Of a stretch of DNA of 7,658 nucleotides, positions 1 to 7,658 are shown piece after piece (within the stretch, counting starts at the first letter, position 1; the number at the start of each line of letters is the position of its first letter). The notes below the pieces were generated by a model, which was given only the letters and a program-made list of their open reading frames with translations, did no database searches and was not told the origin of the DNA. The translations under genes and the position numbers were made by a program. The DNA lies in IMG/VR virus record IMGVR_UViG_2548876852_000010; one strand, 5' to 3'. Source of the stretch: a virus (Duplodnaviria; Heunggongvirae; Uroviricota; Caudoviricetes).

Positions 1-42
1 GATGACGATCAGGGCGATTAACATCGCCTTTTGCTGCTTCAT
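1..42 (-). CDS. hok: Hok/Gef-family type I toxin, first 14 codons only (CDS continues past the window start)
   Basis: Reverse complement of 1..42 is ATG AAG CAG CAA AAG GCG ATG TTA ATC GCC CTG ATC GTC ATC = MKQQKAMLIALIVI, the characteristic N-terminus and start of the single TM helix of Hok/Gef/RelF-type toxins. It is preceded by the typical leader ...gaaaggcaaggagaagcaggct ATG with SD GGAG. Confidence 0.75.
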   Translation of the reverse strand, partial: MKQQKAMLIALIVI

Positions 43-99
43 AGCCTGCTTCTCCTTGCCTTTCGGCACGTAAGAGGCTAACCTAGATTTGCCGTTCAT
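1..99 (-). CDS. mok: mok-like upstream reading frame, in frame with and overlapping hok (translational coupler), partial
   Basis: ATG at 99..97 (minus) opens MNGKSRLASYVPKGKEKQA, which runs in frame into the hok ATG at 42. This is the same arrangement as chromosomal mok/hok pairs, where mok is an N-terminal extension. Confidence 0.45.
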   Translation of the reverse strand, partial: MNGKSRLASYVPKGKEKQAMKQQKAMLIALIVI

Positions 100-170
100 A
101 GATTGAGCCTCAGATTAATGTTAAGCGTCTTGCAGGACGCGTAATGTTAACTGGGGCTTTTCTCTATCTG
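91..170 (+). ncRNA. sok: Candidate Sok-like antisense RNA complementary to the mok translation-initiation region
   Basis: Plus-strand -35 TTGCCT (56..61), 17-bp spacer, -10 TAACCT (79..84), giving a start near 91. The transcript would be antisense to the mok start at 97..99. It contains an inner hairpin GCGTC-ttgcag-GACGC and an outer CCTCAG/CTGGGG stem followed by CTTTTCTC. Boundaries are approximate. Confidence 0.3.
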
Positions 171-217
171 CCTTTGGTGTTCATGCCTGAGACAGATAGC
201 CTCAAGCACCCGCAGCC

Positions 218-1602: not shown

Positions 1603-2184
1603 TTATCTTCTTTTCAGTTCCTTGGGAAGAAAAGCATCTATTTCTTCTTCAGAAAATGTTAAATCTTCTTTGTTTTTTAATGCGTCCTGTGCTTTTTTAT
1701 AAGCTTCAAATGTTGTACTAGGAGAGCCTGAATACACTGAATGTAAACTCTCGAGTAACGAATCCCGCTCTGACTGCAATTGCTCGATTGGTTTTTCACC
1801 CATTGCTAAGTCTGTAAGCAATGATAAATACTTTTCTCGGATTAACCAGATCTCATTTGCAGCCTGCTTATGTTTTTGCGCCAACTCACCAAGGTCATAA
1901 TCTTTGGTATAAGCGTTAAGAATGAGAAGCAGTGTTGAAACAACAATCCCAACCCCCGTGCCTACTTCACCCGCGCCGAAAAAAGTTGCTAGAAAGCCTC
2001 CAGTAGTTAAGGCGGAGAGAATTATTTGCCAAAACTTTATAGAAGATAGTCGAGATAGGAGAATGTCTGAGCATTTTTCATGCGTCTTATGTGAGTAAAC
2101 GACCCGACCATAACACTCTCTGATCTGCCCTTCTAAAACCCTTCTAGATTCAGGTGTATCCTTAGTCTGGAAATGTTGATCCAT
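1603..2184 (-). CDS. SLATT-like 2-TM membrane effector (predicted partner of the upstream nucleotidyltransferase)
   Basis: The ORF spans 1603..2241. The preferred start is ATG 2184..2182, preceded by GGGAG (aaatggcGGGAGattt ATG), whereas the ATG at 2241 has no SD. Two adjacent hydrophobic helices (FWQIILSALTTGGFLATFF and GVGIVVSTLLLILNAY) are flanked by amphipathic helices with conserved-looking H/Y/W positions (VVYSHKTHEK ... AQKHKQAANEIWLIREKYL), which is SLATT-like architecture. It overlaps the upstream gene by 23 nt. Confidence 0.8.
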   Translation of the reverse strand: MDQHFQTKDTPESRRVLEGQIRECYGRVVYSHKTHEKCSDILLSRLSSIKFWQIILSALTTGGFLATFFGAGEVGTGVGIVVSTLLLILNAYTKDYDLGELAQKHKQAANEIWLIREKYLSLLTDLAMGEKPIEQLQSERDSLLESLHSVYSGSPSTTFEAYKKAQDALKNKEDLTFSEEEIDAFLPKELKRR

Positions 2185-3043
2185 AAATCTCCCGCCATTT
2201 TTGCTTAGCCGACCATTCGCGTTTTGGGGTCGCCATTTCATGCTCTATAGCTTCGAGTGAAATGTTATAGCACCGTTTTGCTTTATATTGGAAAAGCCCT
2301 TTACCATAGACATACTGACCACTTCCTGGCGCTTTCCAATACTCCTTACTCGTATCTTGATCAGCCATCCATTTGAAGAAATCACGACTCATGAAATCGT
2401 AGTAAAGATACGACTTATCTCTATGCGCCCAATTTTCAATGAATTGATACGCAAGCGTATCAATGAGTAAACCACTTATAGGTACATCCCATTTACGCTT
2501 CCAAGCTCTTGCCATTCTACAAAGTTGCACCAAATTGTTATTGGTAATGTTATTTCTTAACCTCATTGCAGAAATTTCTGGCTTTGGATTTGTAATCCTC
2601 CAACGGCCACCACCGTTCGCATCAGGAAATGTGTAACTATCACTAACATTGAGGAAAGCTGGAACGACTTCAAATGTAATTCCATCATTGAACGGTACAA
2701 GGATCACTTGACCGTCACCTCTAATACTAGTGGTAGCATAGGTTTTTTCAATAGATCTCTTAACCGCTTGAAGCAATGCTGACTGCCCATTTCCTAAGTA
2801 GCTATTGTATTTTTGATACTCGGAATATGGTAGCTGAAAAATCATATCCAGATCGCTCAAGCCTTGCGTAGCTGTGTTCCGACCATATGATCCAACGTAG
2901 AGACTATGAGAAGTATCAGAACTGCTATCCCAAAAATCCGTATTTAAACGCTTCGTTATATTCCTATATCTAGTTGAAATTGTTCCACCATCTTTTACAG
3001 TAAGATTGGAGCAAAATCCGCAAAACCACTCAGCTAAACCCAT
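2162..3043 (-). CDS. SMODS / CD-NTase-like nucleotidyltransferase (cGAS/DncV-like, Pol-beta fold)
   Basis: The track ORF 2162..3049 begins at TTG. The first ATG is 3043..3041, preceded by AAGGA. Motif GSYGRNTATQGLSDLD (nt 2846..2893) fits the G[SG]-x(9-13)-D-h-D nucleotidyltransferase signature, followed by a FEVVPAF strand carrying the likely third acidic residue. The N-terminus (AEWF..F...L.L...RY..I..RLN) is typical of SMODS domains. Stop TAA at 2162..2164. Confidence 0.8.
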   Translation of the reverse strand: MGLAEWFCGFCSNLTVKDGGTISTRYRNITKRLNTDFWDSSSDTSHSLYVGSYGRNTATQGLSDLDMIFQLPYSEYQKYNSYLGNGQSALLQAVKRSIEKTYATTSIRGDGQVILVPFNDGITFEVVPAFLNVSDSYTFPDANGGGRWRITNPKPEISAMRLRNNITNNNLVQLCRMARAWKRKWDVPISGLLIDTLAYQFIENWAHRDKSYLYYDFMSRDFFKWMADQDTSKEYWKAPGSGQYVYGKGLFQYKAKRCYNISLEAIEHEMATPKREWSAKQKWREIYGSTFPD

Positions 3044-3185
3044 GCTCAATTCCTTTTCTAAAATCTAATGAAAAATTCAAGGGCGCATGTTCCATGCATC
3101 ATTGATAACTTTTTTCAGTCAGCTAGAGCAACATAATTGATACTAACTAGCTGTTTCTTCAAGTGAGTAACCTACTTTAGCATCA

Positions 3186-3222: not shown

Positions 3223-3357
3223 CTTAAGCCATTGAAGTATATAGAGCAGATTTTGTTGAAAAAGCACTGTTTGTCTATACATATGAATATGTGCTTTTAA
3301 CCAGCAATAGCGCGGCTCTCAGCGTTTTACAAGCAGTGTCATGGGGTGTCGGGGATC

Positions 3358-3385
3358 GGAAGTTCAAATCCTCTCGTGCGACCCA
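3358..3385 (+). other. Orphan tRNA 3'-end fragment (T-arm + acceptor 3' strand + discriminator + CCA), possible att core or integration scar
   Basis: GGAAG-TTCAAAT-CCTCT (T-stem/loop with one mismatch), then CGTGCGA-C-CCA at 3375..3385. No complementary 5' acceptor strand (TCGCACG) or D-arm exists within 100 nt upstream. The T-arm resembles a tRNA-Pro-like GGAGG/CCTCT arm. Confidence 0.35.
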
Positions 3386-3397
3386 AAAGATTATATA

Positions 3398-3424
3398 AAC
3401 CAGCCTGTTATTGCTGGTTTTTTA
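3398..3424. terminator. Hairpin terminator, usable on either strand
   Basis: 7-bp stem AACCAGC (3398..3404) / GCTGGTT (3413..3419) with an 8-nt loop. On the plus strand it is followed by TTTTTT, on the minus strand by TATATAATCTTTT. It sits about 150 nt past the minus-strand replication-module ORF ending at 3577 and 13 nt past the tRNA-like CCA on the plus strand. Confidence 0.5.
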
Positions 3425-3576
3425 TGCCTACCTTCCTGGTAGGGAAGCTATGGGGAATTACTGGGGAATCCCCCCCTTTACCTGCTCCCATTAAACTAAC
3501 ATAGCACGATGTAAGCAACTTCCGCTTCTGGCACAAAGCGGACAACCACGCTAGCTCTACCCTGTGCCACAAAATG

Positions 3577-4075: not shown

Positions 4076-5146
4076 TTACCCCCTGAAGCCCGGTGGAATT
4101 TCGGTATCCGGTTCAGAAATATGATTCACACAACGCTGGTTGTTCGTACCGCTTACCGGGAGCAACCAGGGGTTTTCAAAATTCCGGTCCGGTCCAAAAA
4201 ACGTCGTCGCTCGCTGAACAAATTCCGTTCCCGTTTTCCCGGTAGCCGCCAGGTATCTTGCGTAACGCCTCACACCATCCAGCATGGCCTCTGGTGGCAC
4301 CCCCTCGCGTAATCTGGCCTTCCAGGCACTGAAAGCGGATTTCTTCGGGTTTGCCCCAGCACGCAACGGGTATTCCCGCCAGACCTGTTCGAACACATCC
4401 GGATAATCTACTCGCCCCACAGGCTGCCCGGTGTTTTCCGGGACTACCCGATCGGCTTCCCGCTGAATGGCGGAATCGGCTTCAGGCTGCTGCAGTTGGT
4501 GTGATTGCTCCGGCCTTGCGGTCATCACCTGCTGCACAGCGCCCGAATCGGCTTTCAGCGCATACGCTGAATCGGCTTCCGGTGTCGTGCCTGCTGGCTG
4601 ACCAGGATTGACGGTCTGAACATCCCCTGCCTGGTTCGTGGCGTTTTTTACGCCATGGACCATAGTGTTTTGATCTTCTTGATCTGTATCTTTATCTGTA
4701 TCTTTATCTGTCGTGACTCGTCGTGACATGTGCGTGACATTTCGTGACGCGCCGTGACAATCGCCATTTTGTTCCCGCTTTCTTTCCCTCTCTCGCTGCG
4801 CCCTCTTGCGCTCTGCAGGAGATTTTGCGGTTTGCGAAATATTGCCGTTGTCCTCTTTAAGCACCTGGCGTTTTTCCCATCCAGTGATTAAATCACCATC
4901 AAGTACCCGCCCCTGCATCGTCTGCAAAATTGAATCAATTACCTCTTCTGTCACGTCGAGCGCACTTGCCAAATCTTCTGTCGTGACATCAATGTGACCT
5001 CGCGTGACATTTCGTGACGCGCTCACCAGGAGGTGGATATACACTGCCATCACTGTTGCAATTGGCTGCCCTGACACCCTGGCAATTGTTCGCCACTTAG
5101 GGTCATTTGGCATGTCATGCCATAATCTGAGCCAAGCGTTAGCCAT
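4076..5146 (-). CDS. Prophage replication initiation protein (replisome-organiser-like) with internal iterons
   Basis: The track ORF begins at GTG 5152, but the first ATG at 5146 is preceded by GAGGTG. N-terminus MANAWLRLWHDMPNDPKWRTIARV...YIHLL and a conserved-looking C-terminal block (YPLRAGANPKKSAFSAWKARL...GVRRYARYLAATGKTGTEFVQRATTFFGPD) are typical of lambdoid or cryptic-prophage replication initiators. It sits downstream of the cro/cII analogues, as lambda O does, and contains a low-complexity acidic linker (TDKDTDKDTDQEDQ). Confidence 0.7.
   Translation of the reverse strand: MANAWLRLWHDMPNDPKWRTIARVSGQPIATVMAVYIHLLVSASRNVTRGHIDVTTEDLASALDVTEEVIDSILQTMQGRVLDGDLITGWEKRQVLKEDNGNISQTAKSPAERKRAQRERERKREQNGDCHGASRNVTHMSRRVTTDKDTDKDTDQEDQNTMVHGVKNATNQAGDVQTVNPGQPAGTTPEADSAYALKADSGAVQQVMTARPEQSHQLQQPEADSAIQREADRVVPENTGQPVGRVDYPDVFEQVWREYPLRAGANPKKSAFSAWKARLREGVPPEAMLDGVRRYARYLAATGKTGTEFVQRATTFFGPDRNFENPWLLPVSGTNNQRCVNHISEPDTEIPPGFRG
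4687..4710. repeat. Tandem direct repeat, 12-bp unit TATCTTTATCTG x2 (hexamer TATCT[TG] x4)
   Basis: Exact tandem duplication read directly from the sequence. It encodes the TDKDTDKD linker and abuts iteron cluster 1. Confidence 0.85.
4712..4758. repeat. Iteron cluster 1: five CGTGAC repeats phased at 10-11 bp
   Basis: CGTGAC at 4712, 4722, 4733, 4743 and 4753, about one helical turn apart, inside the replication-initiator CDS. Confidence 0.8.
4982..5018. repeat. Iteron cluster 2: four (C/T)GTGAC repeats phased at 10-11 bp
   Basis: CGTGAC at 4982, 5003 and 5013 and TGTGAC at 4993. The 21-bp string GCGTGACATTTCGTGACGCGC is shared exactly with cluster 1. Confidence 0.8.
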
Positions 5147-5217
5147 ACTCACCTCTTCTGATACCGAATCTTTTTACTCACGAGTTGCCGGAAGCGATTC
5201 GATATGGCTATTGTCAG

Positions 5218-5643
5218 TCAATGTACTGCCACAGCATTTCCTGCCGGGCCACCACGGTTCATCTGATTGAAACCGGCGATTGCCACTGCGACAAAATCAT
5301 CAGCGTCTCTCACCAGTCGCTCCCGCGTCTCCACCAGCTCCCGAAAATAAGCTGAACTGTGGCTGCGCATTCTGGCCACCAGCAAAGGTGGCATTGCCTT
5401 TTCGATCGCTGGTAACAACGCCTGAATTTTTTCAACTGCATCAGGGGTATCTTTCTCTATCCAGCGGAAAATTTTCTGGGTATTGCGAGCCAGGGCTTCC
5501 GGATGGCTGTCGTCGTACAGTTCAGGAAACGTCATACCCAACTCAAAATAAGCCTGGGTTATTCCAGCTGCCGGAACTTTTTCGCCATCAGGACGCGCCC
5601 AGGCATTCATCGCCATGCGGATGTGTTCATGCTTGATTTTCAT
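5218..5643 (-). CDS. YdaT-family protein (CII-like regulator of cryptic and lambdoid prophages)
   Basis: The best start is the internal ATG at 5643, preceded by AAGGGGGG. The product begins MKIKHEHI... and ends ...VAVH, at about 141 aa, matching the length, termini and position (after the cro analogue, before the replication gene) of the Rac YdaT family as I recall it. The upstream extension of the track ORF has no SD. Confidence 0.65.
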   Translation of the reverse strand: MKIKHEHIRMAMNAWARPDGEKVPAAGITQAYFELGMTFPELYDDSHPEALARNTQKIFRWIEKDTPDAVEKIQALLPAIEKAMPPLLVARMRSHSSAYFRELVETRERLVRDADDFVAVAIAGFNQMNRGGPAGNAVAVH

Positions 5644-5869
5644 GAATCCCCCCTTGGTTAGAAGGCGGATTATGATCAGAACCGGGAATGACAACCGTCG
5701 GTATGTGTAACTCATATTTGAGCGCCCCGGCAGTGACTGCCTGAATTAGCAACGCCCATTTCCACGGAACCTCTTCCCCCCACATGCTGACTGTGGTTTT
5801 TGACGTTCCTAGAGCTGCGGCTGTTTTAACAACTCCGCCAAAATAGCCTAATACTTCTGATTTTTTCAT
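5627..5869 (-). CDS. Cro/YdaS-like small HTH regulator
   Basis: The best start is ATG at 5869, preceded by GGAG 7 nt upstream. HTH signature YFGGVVKTAAALGTSKTTVSMW. It is divergent from the CI-like gene and overlaps the YdaT-like start by 17 nt. Confidence 0.65.
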   Translation of the reverse strand: MKKSEVLGYFGGVVKTAAALGTSKTTVSMWGEEVPWKWALLIQAVTAGALKYELHIPTVVIPGSDHNPPSNQGGIHENQA

Positions 5870-5897
5870 GAGTCGCTCCATAAAACTGAACGCCAAA

Positions 5898-5927
5898 AGT
5901 TTAATAATCAAAACCAAAGAAAGTCAA
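5898..5927 (-). promoter_or_regulatory. Candidate PR-like promoter for the cro/YdaS - YdaT - rep operon
   Basis: On the minus strand: -35 TTGACT (5927..5922), 18-bp spacer, -10 TAAACT (5903..5898). The -10 hexamer is identical to that of the PL-like promoter at 6707..6712. Confidence 0.35.
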
Positions 5928-5942
5928 GAAACAAAACCATCT

Positions 5943-5962
5943 GTGTTTTAAAATCAAAACAT
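5943..5962. promoter_or_regulatory. Operator-like 20-bp palindrome GTGTTTT-aaaatc-AAAACAT overlapping the CI start codon
   Basis: 7-bp inverted arms with a 6-bp spacer. The architecture is the same as the palindrome at 6665..6684, with arms differing at one position. It overlaps a -10-like TAAAAT (5949..5954) placed 6 nt before the SD-less CI ATG. Confidence 0.45.
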
Positions 5963-6599
5963 GAGCAAGCAAACAATATCTGAACGCATAACCCAACGTA
6001 TGCATGCGCTAAACCTGAAAGGCAAAGACCTTGTCAATGCCACTGGCGCATCAAAAGGCTCCGTAAGTCAATGGATGAACGGTGGAGGAGCGCCGTCCTC
6101 GCGTTACATAAGTTCACTGGCAAAAATATTGAAAGTAAACGAAAATTGGCTTCTTAATGGAGGAGAGTTAAATACAGGTGATTCGCTTGATCTATCTTTA
6201 CCGCCGATAAAAACGGTTCCGCTACTATCACTTCAGCAGGCAGCAAGCTGGAGTGATTATATGAAAAATTCCTCAATAACCTCTTGTGTGCAGCTTGTCG
6301 GAGAAATCCCGGCCAATACCTTTGCAGTTGTTCTAGAGAGTGACAGTATGTCAACATCTGGTGGGGGAGTTTCCATCCCAAATGGTTCAACAGTTTTTGT
6401 TGATCCCAATCGAACCGTACAACCAGGAAATATTGTCCTTGCCTTACCCAAAGGGACCACAACACCTGTCATTCGTAAACTGGAGATAGAAGGGCCGGAT
6501 ATTCTTTTAGTCCCCACGAATCCTCGCTACCCTTCAATTATGCTGGATGATCTATCTTGCATATTGGGCGTATGCTTTAAAATTCAACAAGATATTTAA
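5961..6599 (+). CDS. CI-like phage repressor (N-terminal HTH + C-terminal S24 LexA-like autopeptidase domain)
   Basis: ATG at 5961. The HTH region is LKGKDLVNATGASKGSVSQWMNG. The C-terminal domain has the S24 Ser/Lys dyad context (ESDSMS ... VIRKL) and collinear similarity to the lambda CI C-terminus (VFVDPNRTVQPGNIVLALP ... LLVPTNPRYPSIMLDD versus LVDPEQAVEPGDFCIARL ... FLQPLNPQYPMIPCNE). No SD, so possibly leaderless like lambda cI from PRM. Confidence 0.88.
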   Translation: MSKQTISERITQRMHALNLKGKDLVNATGASKGSVSQWMNGGGAPSSRYISSLAKILKVNENWLLNGGELNTGDSLDLSLPPIKTVPLLSLQQAASWSDYMKNSSITSCVQLVGEIPANTFAVVLESDSMSTSGGGVSIPNGSTVFVDPNRTVQPGNIVLALPKGTTTPVIRKLEIEGPDILLVPTNPRYPSIMLDDLSCILGVCFKIQQDI

Positions 6600-6664
6600 C
6601 CGACCTCATCTATTTGATTAACTGTATGCCATCGTGGTGATGGCTTAACAGCTGCCTGCTTAAA

Positions 6665-6684
6665 ATGTTTTGATAAAAAAACAT
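6665..6684. promoter_or_regulatory. Operator-like 20-bp palindrome ATGTTTT-gataaa-AAAACAT overlapping the -35 of the PL-like promoter
   Basis: Perfect 7-bp inverted repeat with a 6-bp spacer. Its last base is the first T of TTGACC. Confidence 0.45.
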
Positions 6685-6712
6685 TGACCTGAAAAGTTCA
6701 TTTTTCTAAACT
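6684..6712 (+). promoter_or_regulatory. Candidate PL-like sigma70 promoter for the downstream plus-strand operon
   Basis: -35 TTGACC (6684..6689), 17-bp spacer, -10 TAAACT (6707..6712), downstream of and co-directional with the CI-like gene. Confidence 0.4.
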
Positions 6713-6727
6713 TCATTCATTCCCTCT

Positions 6728-6736
6728 CCCCCCCCC
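6728..6736. repeat. Homopolymeric C9 tract in the leader downstream of the PL-like promoter
   Basis: CCCCCCCCC read directly, about 16 nt after the candidate -10 and upstream of the first plus-strand small ORF. Confidence 0.9.
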
Positions 6737-6891
6737 ACAGAATGCAGGGCAATACTTCGAGTTACCAGGCAGTGGTCAGGGGTTAAGTAGCCAGCCCGAG
6801 GCGTAAGAACATGACGGCAGGGTTCAACTTTAATAACTATGCAGCAGGTTTTTGTTCCGCTACCCCGGCGTTAAGGGGAAATGAGGTCAGC

Positions 6892-7044
6892 ATGGATACT
6901 ATCGATCTTGGCAACAGCGAATCTCTGGTATGTGGCGTGTTCCCCAACCAGGACGGTACGTTCACCGCGATGACGTATACCAAAAGCAAAACGTTTAAAA
7001 CTGAAGCTGGCGCGCGTCGCTGGTTAACCAGAAACACTGACTGA
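6892..7044 (+). CDS. Small hypothetical protein (about 50 aa; possibly 77 aa if started at 6811)
   Basis: ATG at 6892 preceded by GAGG with a 5-nt spacer. The ATG at 6811 has only a poorly spaced SD. The stop TGA at 7042..7044 overlaps the ATG at 7044 (TGATG). Confidence 0.4.
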   Translation: MDTIDLGNSESLVCGVFPNQDGTFTAMTYTKSKTFKTEAGARRWLTRNTD

Positions 7045-7055
7045 TGAGGTTGACG

Positions 7056-7430
7056 ATGGAATTTAAAGATTTACCAGTACCATTCCAGGAAATGGCATCG
7101 AATGTGGTTCGCTCTCAACTGGCGACTCTTGACCTGAGTACCGTAGAAAAAGAAACCATCGATACTATATCCGGTAACGTGCGTCGTGCCTTTATCGGTC
7201 TGTACGAAGAGAAGCAGCTCTCTGATAACCAGGATTTACATGAAAAATACTTCATGGAATTAATGGACATCATTAATAAAGGATTTGGCTTGTTAATGAA
7301 AAAGAAAGGGATTCGAATAGCTCCCCTTGAAAATCATTTTACAGCGAGCAGTATTAATTCCTGTGATTTAAAGCATCACACATCCGATGGGAAAGTTGAA
7401 TCAAACAACAAAATATCAATTAATCATTAA
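7056..7430 (+). CDS. Hypothetical protein (about 124 aa; alternative start 7044)
   Basis: ATG at 7056 preceded by GAGG with a 5-nt spacer. The alternative ATG at 7044 overlaps the upstream stop but has no SD. Family not recognised. Stop TAA at 7428..7430. Confidence 0.5.
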   Translation: MEFKDLPVPFQEMASNVVRSQLATLDLSTVEKETIDTISGNVRRAFIGLYEEKQLSDNQDLHEKYFMELMDIINKGFGLLMKKKGIRIAPLENHFTASSINSCDLKHHTSDGKVESNNKISINH

Positions 7431-7510
7431 TTTATTCACAGGTGAGGTAGAGTGCGTGCGCCGGACACGGATAAGAATCCGGCACTGACAGTTTACTGAA
7501 AAGGATATAT

Positions 7511-7526
7511 CCCTGAAAAGTCAGGG
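7511..7526 (+). other. Small hairpin CCCTGA-aaag-TCAGGG, reminiscent of a lambda boxB element
   Basis: 6-bp stem with a 4-nt purine loop, on the same strand and downstream of the PL-like promoter. No convincing boxA was found nearby. Confidence 0.2.
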
Positions 7527-7658
7527 CATAACACGAAAGCGCCCGGCGAAGTTAGTCTCTCTGTATAGGTCGTCGTTAAATTTAATTCGATCGTGCGCTT
7601 CCGGTTGTGGCAATCCGCGAAATGGCGCGGCGGTAAGTATGGCGGGGTTATTCCTTCC

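Follow-up and report, generated by a model that had tools for sequence, protein, structure and literature searches.

Candidate left operator and early promoter of a lambda-like prophage of Escherichia coli

Is the inverted repeat that lies between a phage repressor gene and the next gene downstream the left operator of a prophage, at which the repressor silences an early promoter? A preliminary description had read it in this way, as part of a PL-like promoter occluded by the repressor. We followed up this reading by computational analysis of the window (the whole stretch of DNA analysed, 7,658 nt), and each prediction that it makes at the level of sequence, concerning the neighbouring genes, the recurrence of the repeat, its position, the operon and the precedent of dicBp, was borne out. 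The feature is very probably the left operator and promoter of a lambda-like E. coli prophage (Rac/Qin/DicF type), equivalent to OL/PL of lambda and to dicBp of Qin.

The palindrome and predicted promoter behind the repressor gene

The gene upstream of the feature encodes a CI-like repressor of 212 aa (5961-6599, + strand), with an N-terminal HTH domain (HTH_3, 1.7e-4) and a C-terminal S24 peptidase domain (Peptidase_S24, 1.2e-13). Its closest solved relatives are lambda CI (7e-10) and the N-domains of 434 and P22 C2. A cro-like gene of the P22_Cro family (5627-5869, - strand; PF14549, 1.1e-15) is divergent from cI, and a YdaT/cII-like gene (5218-5643) and a replication gene (4076-5152) are found on the same strand as cro. 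The combination of an HTH and S24 repressor with a divergent cro gene is that of an OL/PL-type region, and the earlier statement that the promoter is downstream of, and co-directional with, a repressor gene proved correct.

The repeat as first noted (ATGTTTT, 6665-6671; GATAAA, 6672-6677; AAAACAT, 6678-6684) was confirmed to be a perfect inverted repeat, and each arm turned out to be one base longer, giving a perfect 8+6+8 palindrome, AATGTTTT gataaa AAAACATT, at 6664-6685. This palindrome, which begins 65 nt past the cI stop codon, is the distal left operator candidate. A sigma-70 consensus scan independently found the promoter described before, TTGACC as -35 (6684-6689) and TAAACT as -10 (6707-6712), both on the + strand, with a 17-nt spacer and 9 of 12 consensus matches. 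The repeat had been said to share one base with the -35; the overlap itself stands, as TTGACC adjoins the repeat, but with the longer arms it consists of two bases (TT) and not one. From the positions of the hexamers, transcription is predicted to start at A6719 (+ strand), 7 nt past the -10, and the centre of the palindrome is then at about -44.5. As expected of OL/PL, a predicted sigma-70 promoter is thus present downstream of the repressor gene, in the same direction, and leads into the early-left operon.

Each taken alone, the palindrome and the promoter match do not beat chance. The window contains 21 perfect inverted repeats of 7 bp with spacers from 0 to 12 (nested ones counted), while random sequences contained 7.4 +/- 3.5 of them, with a maximum of 22. 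Likewise, three promoter-like sites were found in 5600-7100, with 2.5 expected by chance. The support for an operator/promoter therefore comes from recurrence, conservation and shared position, and not from single-feature statistics.

The palindrome could also act as RNA and not as a protein site, folding into a t-imm-like hairpin by which the repressor transcript is terminated or stabilised. Its closeness to the cI stop codon fits this, as do the terminators that other immunity types have just 5' of their left promoters, and the hairpin folds at -5.7 kcal/mol, more stable than every shuffle. However, the stem is nearly all A-U and no U-run comes after it, the palindrome was not called by the terminator scan, and a hairpin leaves unexplained the recurrence of the 20-mer at the cI start and of its core at the cro -10 (see below). 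Moreover, a separate conserved G+C hairpin predicted by folding between the cI stop and the operator, GCCATC-gtggt-GATGGC (6628-6644, + strand), is a better candidate. The terminator reading of the palindrome was rejected on the basis of the terminator scan and the fold, and an RNA function in place of an operator is considered extremely unlikely. In the hairpin at 6628-6644, the 12 stem positions are invariant among haplotypes and four of the five loop bases vary (6634, 6636-6638). It is not followed by a U-tract, in contrast to other immunity types, where canonical terminators are present at the corresponding spot; it is possibly a weak end-of-cI terminator or a stability element.

Two observations on the repressor gene itself can be added. 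RefSeq annotates just the C-terminal 112 aa ("LexA family protein"), so the N-terminal half of the intact 212-aa ORF, which encodes the HTH, is unannotated and an apparent intergenic gap of 390 nt results; this annotation gap is seen at 5961-6260 of the window, at 7162-7500 of L208 and at 7412-7750 of L001. Furthermore, the scissile Ala-Gly of lambda CI aligns with Ala-Ala in the repressor (residues 94-97, QAAS, encoded at 6240-6251), and this Ala-Ala motif is kept in relatives with 83-89% identity. Of the catalytic residues, both Ser (SDSM) and Lys (IRKL) are retained. In view of the Ala-Ala at the scissile position, RecA-stimulated self-cleavage may be atypical or slow.

Candidate operators on both sides of cI and their conservation

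At 5943-5962, within the 91 nt between cI and cro, a second copy of the palindrome differs at one of its 14 specified bases. Given a 106-nt sequence of the same local composition, such a match has P ~2.6e-4; the next best match to the 20-mer anywhere in the window has three mismatches. The core GTTT-N8-AAAC has three exact matches in the 7,658 nt (5899, 5945 and 6667), all of them in the cI-cro and cI-ydfA control regions. Only 0.245 were expected, and three were reached in 6 of 3,000 random windows. A repeat finder independently placed 5898-5916, 5944-5962 and 6666-6684 in one family, and the left palindrome and the cI-cro sites form a single sequence family. It could still be argued that a chance palindrome in A+T-rich intergenic DNA happens to lie beside a chance promoter match without any regulatory role, since perfect 7-bp repeats are abundant in the window and promoter-like matches occur at the random rate. 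This does not account for the recurrence between cI and cro, for the confinement of all exact cores to control regions, for the conservation of the site in diverged relatives or for a promoter position that is common to some eleven immunity types, and we give hardly any weight to it.

Three candidate sites were distinguished on the right, at a spacing of 23 bp. The OR1-like site, AAGTTTA ataatc AAAACCA (5897-5916), has an exact core and lies over the -10 of the promoter that the consensus scan assigned to cro (TTGACT, 5927-5922; TAAACT, 5903-5898; - strand). The OR3-like site, GTGTTTT aaaatc AAAACAT (5943-5962), overlaps both the start codon of cI and a -10-like hexamer, TAAAAT (5949-5954). 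In between, a possible middle site, AAAGTCA agaaac AAAACCA (5920-5939), is weak, having a good right half only, and is 23 bp from each neighbour. The hexamer TAAAAT is 6 nt ahead of the A of the cI ATG, and no Shine-Dalgarno sequence is present, which suggests that the cI mRNA is leaderless and made from a PRM-like promoter, as in lambda. The -35 region of such a promoter would overlap the -35 of the cro promoter, as about 70 bp separate their predicted starts.

On the left, two sites could be recognised, 29 bp apart; a third left operator was looked for and none was found. The proximal candidate, AAGTTCA tttttc TAAACTT (6694-6713), covers the spacer and the entire -10, and its centre at -15.5 is the same as that of 5897-5916 at the cro promoter (with starts 7 nt past the -10). 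It matches the core with one mismatch at 6696-6711, one of only three such one-mismatch matches, and the region is 75% identical to the cro-promoter site at 5895-5914. Compared with the 14-base consensus it has five mismatches, and matches that poor are frequent in the window, so the support for this site is positional and comparative, and not statistical. The two left candidates overlap both promoter elements, 6664-6685 lying on the TT of the -35 and 6694-6713 on the whole -10, and bound repressor would be expected to exclude polymerase. A T>C change at 6712, the last base of the -10 (TAAACT>TAAACC), was seen in three haplotypes and could be a promoter-down change in degraded prophages.

In lambda, the distal site OL2 touches the -35 and OL1 lies over the spacer and -10. 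Since the perfect palindrome, like OL2, touches the -35 by 1-2 bp, the proximal operator is probably needed for full occlusion. This raises the possibility, which we put forward only tentatively, that the distal palindrome is a high-affinity anchor, loading repressor cooperatively onto the weak -10 site and/or looping to the right operators about 750 bp away; repressor bound there might even contact polymerase. The centre at -44.5, with an overlap of only 1-2 bp, would agree with this. It also speaks against occlusion by the distal site, since such a position can be compatible with binding of RNA polymerase, as in the case of CI at OR2 relative to PRM. The weak proximal site is placed exactly as the site at the cro promoter, and the candidate operators flank cI on both sides, 700-770 bp apart, an arrangement for which OL-OR looping in lambda provides a precedent. 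On the other hand, lambda OL2 has nearly the same placement and does contribute to repression, and the 29-bp spacing has no obvious cooperative register, in contrast to the 23 bp on the right.

The conservation of these sites was studied in relatives. At least 80% of window 5850-6900, the immunity module, was present in 1,042 of 5,426 complete E. coli genomes, the best matches including O103, O121, O45 and O39 strains, and the module was also present in three deposited phage records, among them vB_EcoS-640R1. In viral contigs, 80 loci with CI relatives were found, all 99-100% identical and for that reason uninformative for covariation. As near-identical copies say little, diverged copies were sought. 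A word-indexed protein search for CI relatives gave 12 hits, three of which were useful (83-89% identity), and the diverged loci used for comparison were L204 and L206/L207, whose repressors are 83-84% identical to that of the window. A scan of genome contigs with the CI alignment confirmed nothing further. By tblastn of CI against phages, the next relatives were below 31% identity, so no operators of intermediate distance could be compared.

In L204 and L206/L207, the palindrome keeps 20/20 and 19/20 of its bases, and the single change is at the degenerate position 7 of a half-site. The -35 of these loci is TTGACT, and the -10 is unchanged; the bases just 5' of the palindrome, the first bases of the spacer and those past the -10 differ. 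The proximal site of L206, ATGTTTG tttttc TAAACTT, has the GTTT core restored and is nearer to the consensus. In a set of 50 distinct haplotypes from viral contigs, one singleton change was seen across the 14 arm positions, and polymorphism in the promoter spacer and at the first transcribed bases; within the proximal site, 6695 A>T is found in eight haplotypes. The right candidate sites are conserved in the relatives as well, with 5943-5962 unchanged but for one base and 5920-5939 fully conserved; differences affect the cro leader and the 3-4 bases that separate the second site from the third. Conservation of the middle site is no proof of an operator, because it also overlaps the PR -35.

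The module junction, the leader and the early-left operon

In a Megablast comparison, homology to many other phages set in sharply near 6728, a few bases past the predicted start. When a 20-mer from the leader was used as a query, 120 viral contigs were retrieved, and the sequences upstream of it fell into about eleven unrelated classes (immunity types). In 14 of 15 variants, the best -35/-10 pair within 150 nt ends 20-26 nt before a common CACAG anchor (23 nt from the end of the -10 in the window). The palindromes that adjoin the -35 and cover the -10 are peculiar to each class, and in seven of the ten types checked the left-promoter palindromes recur 500-1100 nt upstream, near the start of the repressor gene. 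Judged from these comparisons, the junction is the standard joining place between swappable immunity modules, each with its own operator and promoter, and a common early-left operon. This shared layout is strong indirect evidence for the assignment of promoter and operator. No conclusion was drawn from the L023-type operator, which also has GTTTA/TAAAC; its repressor, examined for an HTH shared with the CI of the window, proved short and unrelated.

The same comparison bears on the question which protein binds the site. In lambdoid phages, Cro shares its operators with the repressor, and the site is A/T-rich with A-tracts, so that it might mainly be bound by the prophage Cro alone or by a host nucleoid protein with a preference for A-tracts; in Qin, H-NS/Cnu modulates binding of DicA (PMC3441716). 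A dyad with a fixed, conserved G and C beside both promoters is nevertheless the signature of a dimeric HTH repressor, and the motif travels with its own cI/cro module while other modules carry other palindromes. We therefore consider it improbable that the site mainly serves a protein other than the repressor.

Under the preferred reading, that of a repressor-controlled left promoter, the transcript would begin with a leader of about 172 nt (6720-6891, + strand) that is conserved, non-coding, C-rich at its 5' end and common to many immunity types. Neither the leader nor the operator region matched Rfam in a scan of the whole window (E<=1). A small ORF in the leader (ATG at 6742, 14 codons) was rejected, its start codon being lost in variants, and so was an N-terminal extension of ydfA from the ATG at 6811, the frame of which is not kept. 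The folding energy of the leader is not unusual (z = +1.5), and covariation gave no support, with one compensatory pair of 44, so a structured leader RNA is unsupported on both counts. RNAalifold does pair the C-rich 5' end with the Shine-Dalgarno region of ydfA. Its conservation in about eleven modules, the lack of coding capacity and of an Rfam match, and a 5' end that can pair with the ydfA ribosome binding site make the leader a possible cis-regulatory RNA; if so, it may be, for example, an anti-Shine-Dalgarno element or a Rho-dependent attenuator. The combined proposal, that the distal palindrome is mainly an anchor for cooperative or looped complexes and that the leader serves the toxic dicB/dicF operon as a cis-regulatory RNA not described before, appears doubtful to us. 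The window has a run of ten C at 6727-6736 where most relatives have CCCCACCCC or CCCCGCCCC; C at 6732 is found in only 3 of 51 haplotypes.

The first gene of the left operon is a ydfA-like DUF1391 gene (6892-7044, + strand; PF07151, E 7.6e-28, and RefSeq annotation). It is not an N gene; a nut site is not recognisable, and visual inspection of the leader revealed nothing resembling boxA or boxB. It is followed by a 128-aa ORF without a family match (7044-7430, + strand), which replaces ydfB/ydfC after the DUF1391 gene. In the O103:H2 strain 12009 the equivalent gene is partial, its C-terminus missing, and an IS3-family transposase gene comes next. Strain 2013C-4991 matches the window exactly over 6600-7658, and its operon continues after the ydfA-like gene with a hypothetical gene, dicB, ydfD, an exonuclease gene, a DUF4224 gene and a frameshifted integrase gene. 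The operon of vB_EcoS-640R1 ends in excisionase and integrase genes, and phage Tritos and K-12 Qin have ydfA-ydfB-ydfC-dicF-dicB-ydfD at the same place. A promoter between the repressor gene and ydfA that would drive ydfA through dicB, the arrangement of dicBp, is thus present in sequence.

Known systems, proposed mechanism and other elements of the window

In Qin, dicBp is the dicA-ydfA promoter and the analogue of PL, and deletion of dicA leads to 22-fold derepression (PMC10448788). The operator Oc of DicA is a 20-nt inverted repeat (PMC3441716). The Qin sequence has TTGACC, 17 nt and TAATCT, with one dyad 5' of the -35 and another over the -10. The promoter of the window shares with it the position between repressor gene and ydfA, the TTGACC, the 17-nt spacer, the placement of the dyads and homologous downstream genes (ydfA ... 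dicB, ydfD). It differs in its repressor, DicA being short and non-cleavable and the window's being a 212-aa HTH and S24 protein, and in its operator, since TTAGTCATAACTAA in Qin and GTTT-N8-AAAC in the window are unrelated; control of the DicA type through TTAGTCATAACTAA-type operators was not found in the window. The leader in Qin is about 100 nt shorter.

With OL/PL of lambda, the window has in common the location downstream of cI, in the same direction, an operator family that is also found at the divergent cro promoter, one site overlapping the -35 from upstream (like OL2) and one covering the spacer and -10 (like OL1), a repressor whose S24 C-terminal domain is related to that of lambda CI, and the recombination and int-xis arm that is driven. 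In contrast to lambda, the sites are 20-22 bp and not 17 bp long, there are two left sites 29 bp apart of which the distal one looks strongest, and there is no N gene, no nut site and no rex genes between cI and the promoter; the CI itself is only distantly related to that of lambda. The N-terminal domain matches the HTH of P22 C2 and 434, and Cro is of the P22_Cro family, but operator sequence and length differ from theirs. P22 C2 is 28% identical to the repressor over the whole protein, and identity to any characterised phage repressor is at most 28-30%, which indicates an immunity specificity separate from P22 C2 and 434. As there is no N gene, the closest named relative of the promoter is dicBp of Qin and not PL of lambda. 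We infer that the promoter works like PL, outside the N-antiterminated type. No paper with the operator sequence turned up in the searchable literature; what is new here is a repressor/operator pair with an uncharacterised operator sequence, and what was known is the PL/dicBp design.

The following mechanism is proposed. Its start site is inferred from sequence, as are binding, occlusion and any cooperativity between the left pair of sites. In the lysogen, dimers of the CI-like repressor would bind two 20-bp dyads, A(T/A)GTTT(T/A)-N6-(A/T)AAAC(A/T)T, and the distal (6664-6685) and proximal (6694-6713) sites would jointly exclude RNA polymerase, as OL2 and OL1 do in lambda. The same repressor would bind the sites at 5897-5962 and shut the divergent cro promoter, and the P22-type Cro probably uses the same sites. 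Upon inactivation of CI, the left promoter would fire from about A6719, giving the leader of about 172 nt and then the operon, so that the ydfA-like gene, dicB, ydfD, the exonuclease gene and the excisionase/integrase genes would be transcribed. The promoter would in this way gate an operon for the cell-division inhibitor DicB, to which related prophages add the sRNA DicF, in a module carried by about a fifth of the complete E. coli genomes. With the operator consensus, the immunity specificity of these prophages and their induction become open to test; the general understanding of such switches is unchanged.

Elsewhere in the window, the sok antitoxin RNA of a hok/sok locus was identified at 37-211 (- strand; RF01794, 110 bits), the sole Rfam hit at E<=1, and RefSeq annotates hokD there in the matching strain. 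A SMODS nucleotidyltransferase gene (2162-3049) and a gene for a SLATT_4 two-TM effector (1603-2241), on the - strand, form a candidate minimal CBASS-like defence pair, inserted in the prophage beside a recombinase fragment (1102-1461). ARAGORN found no complete tRNA in the window. At 3340-3425, a stretch resembling the 3' half of a tRNA (GGAAGTTCAAATCCTCTCGTGCGACCCA) is followed by a hairpin and a T-run, and may be the remnant of an attachment site.
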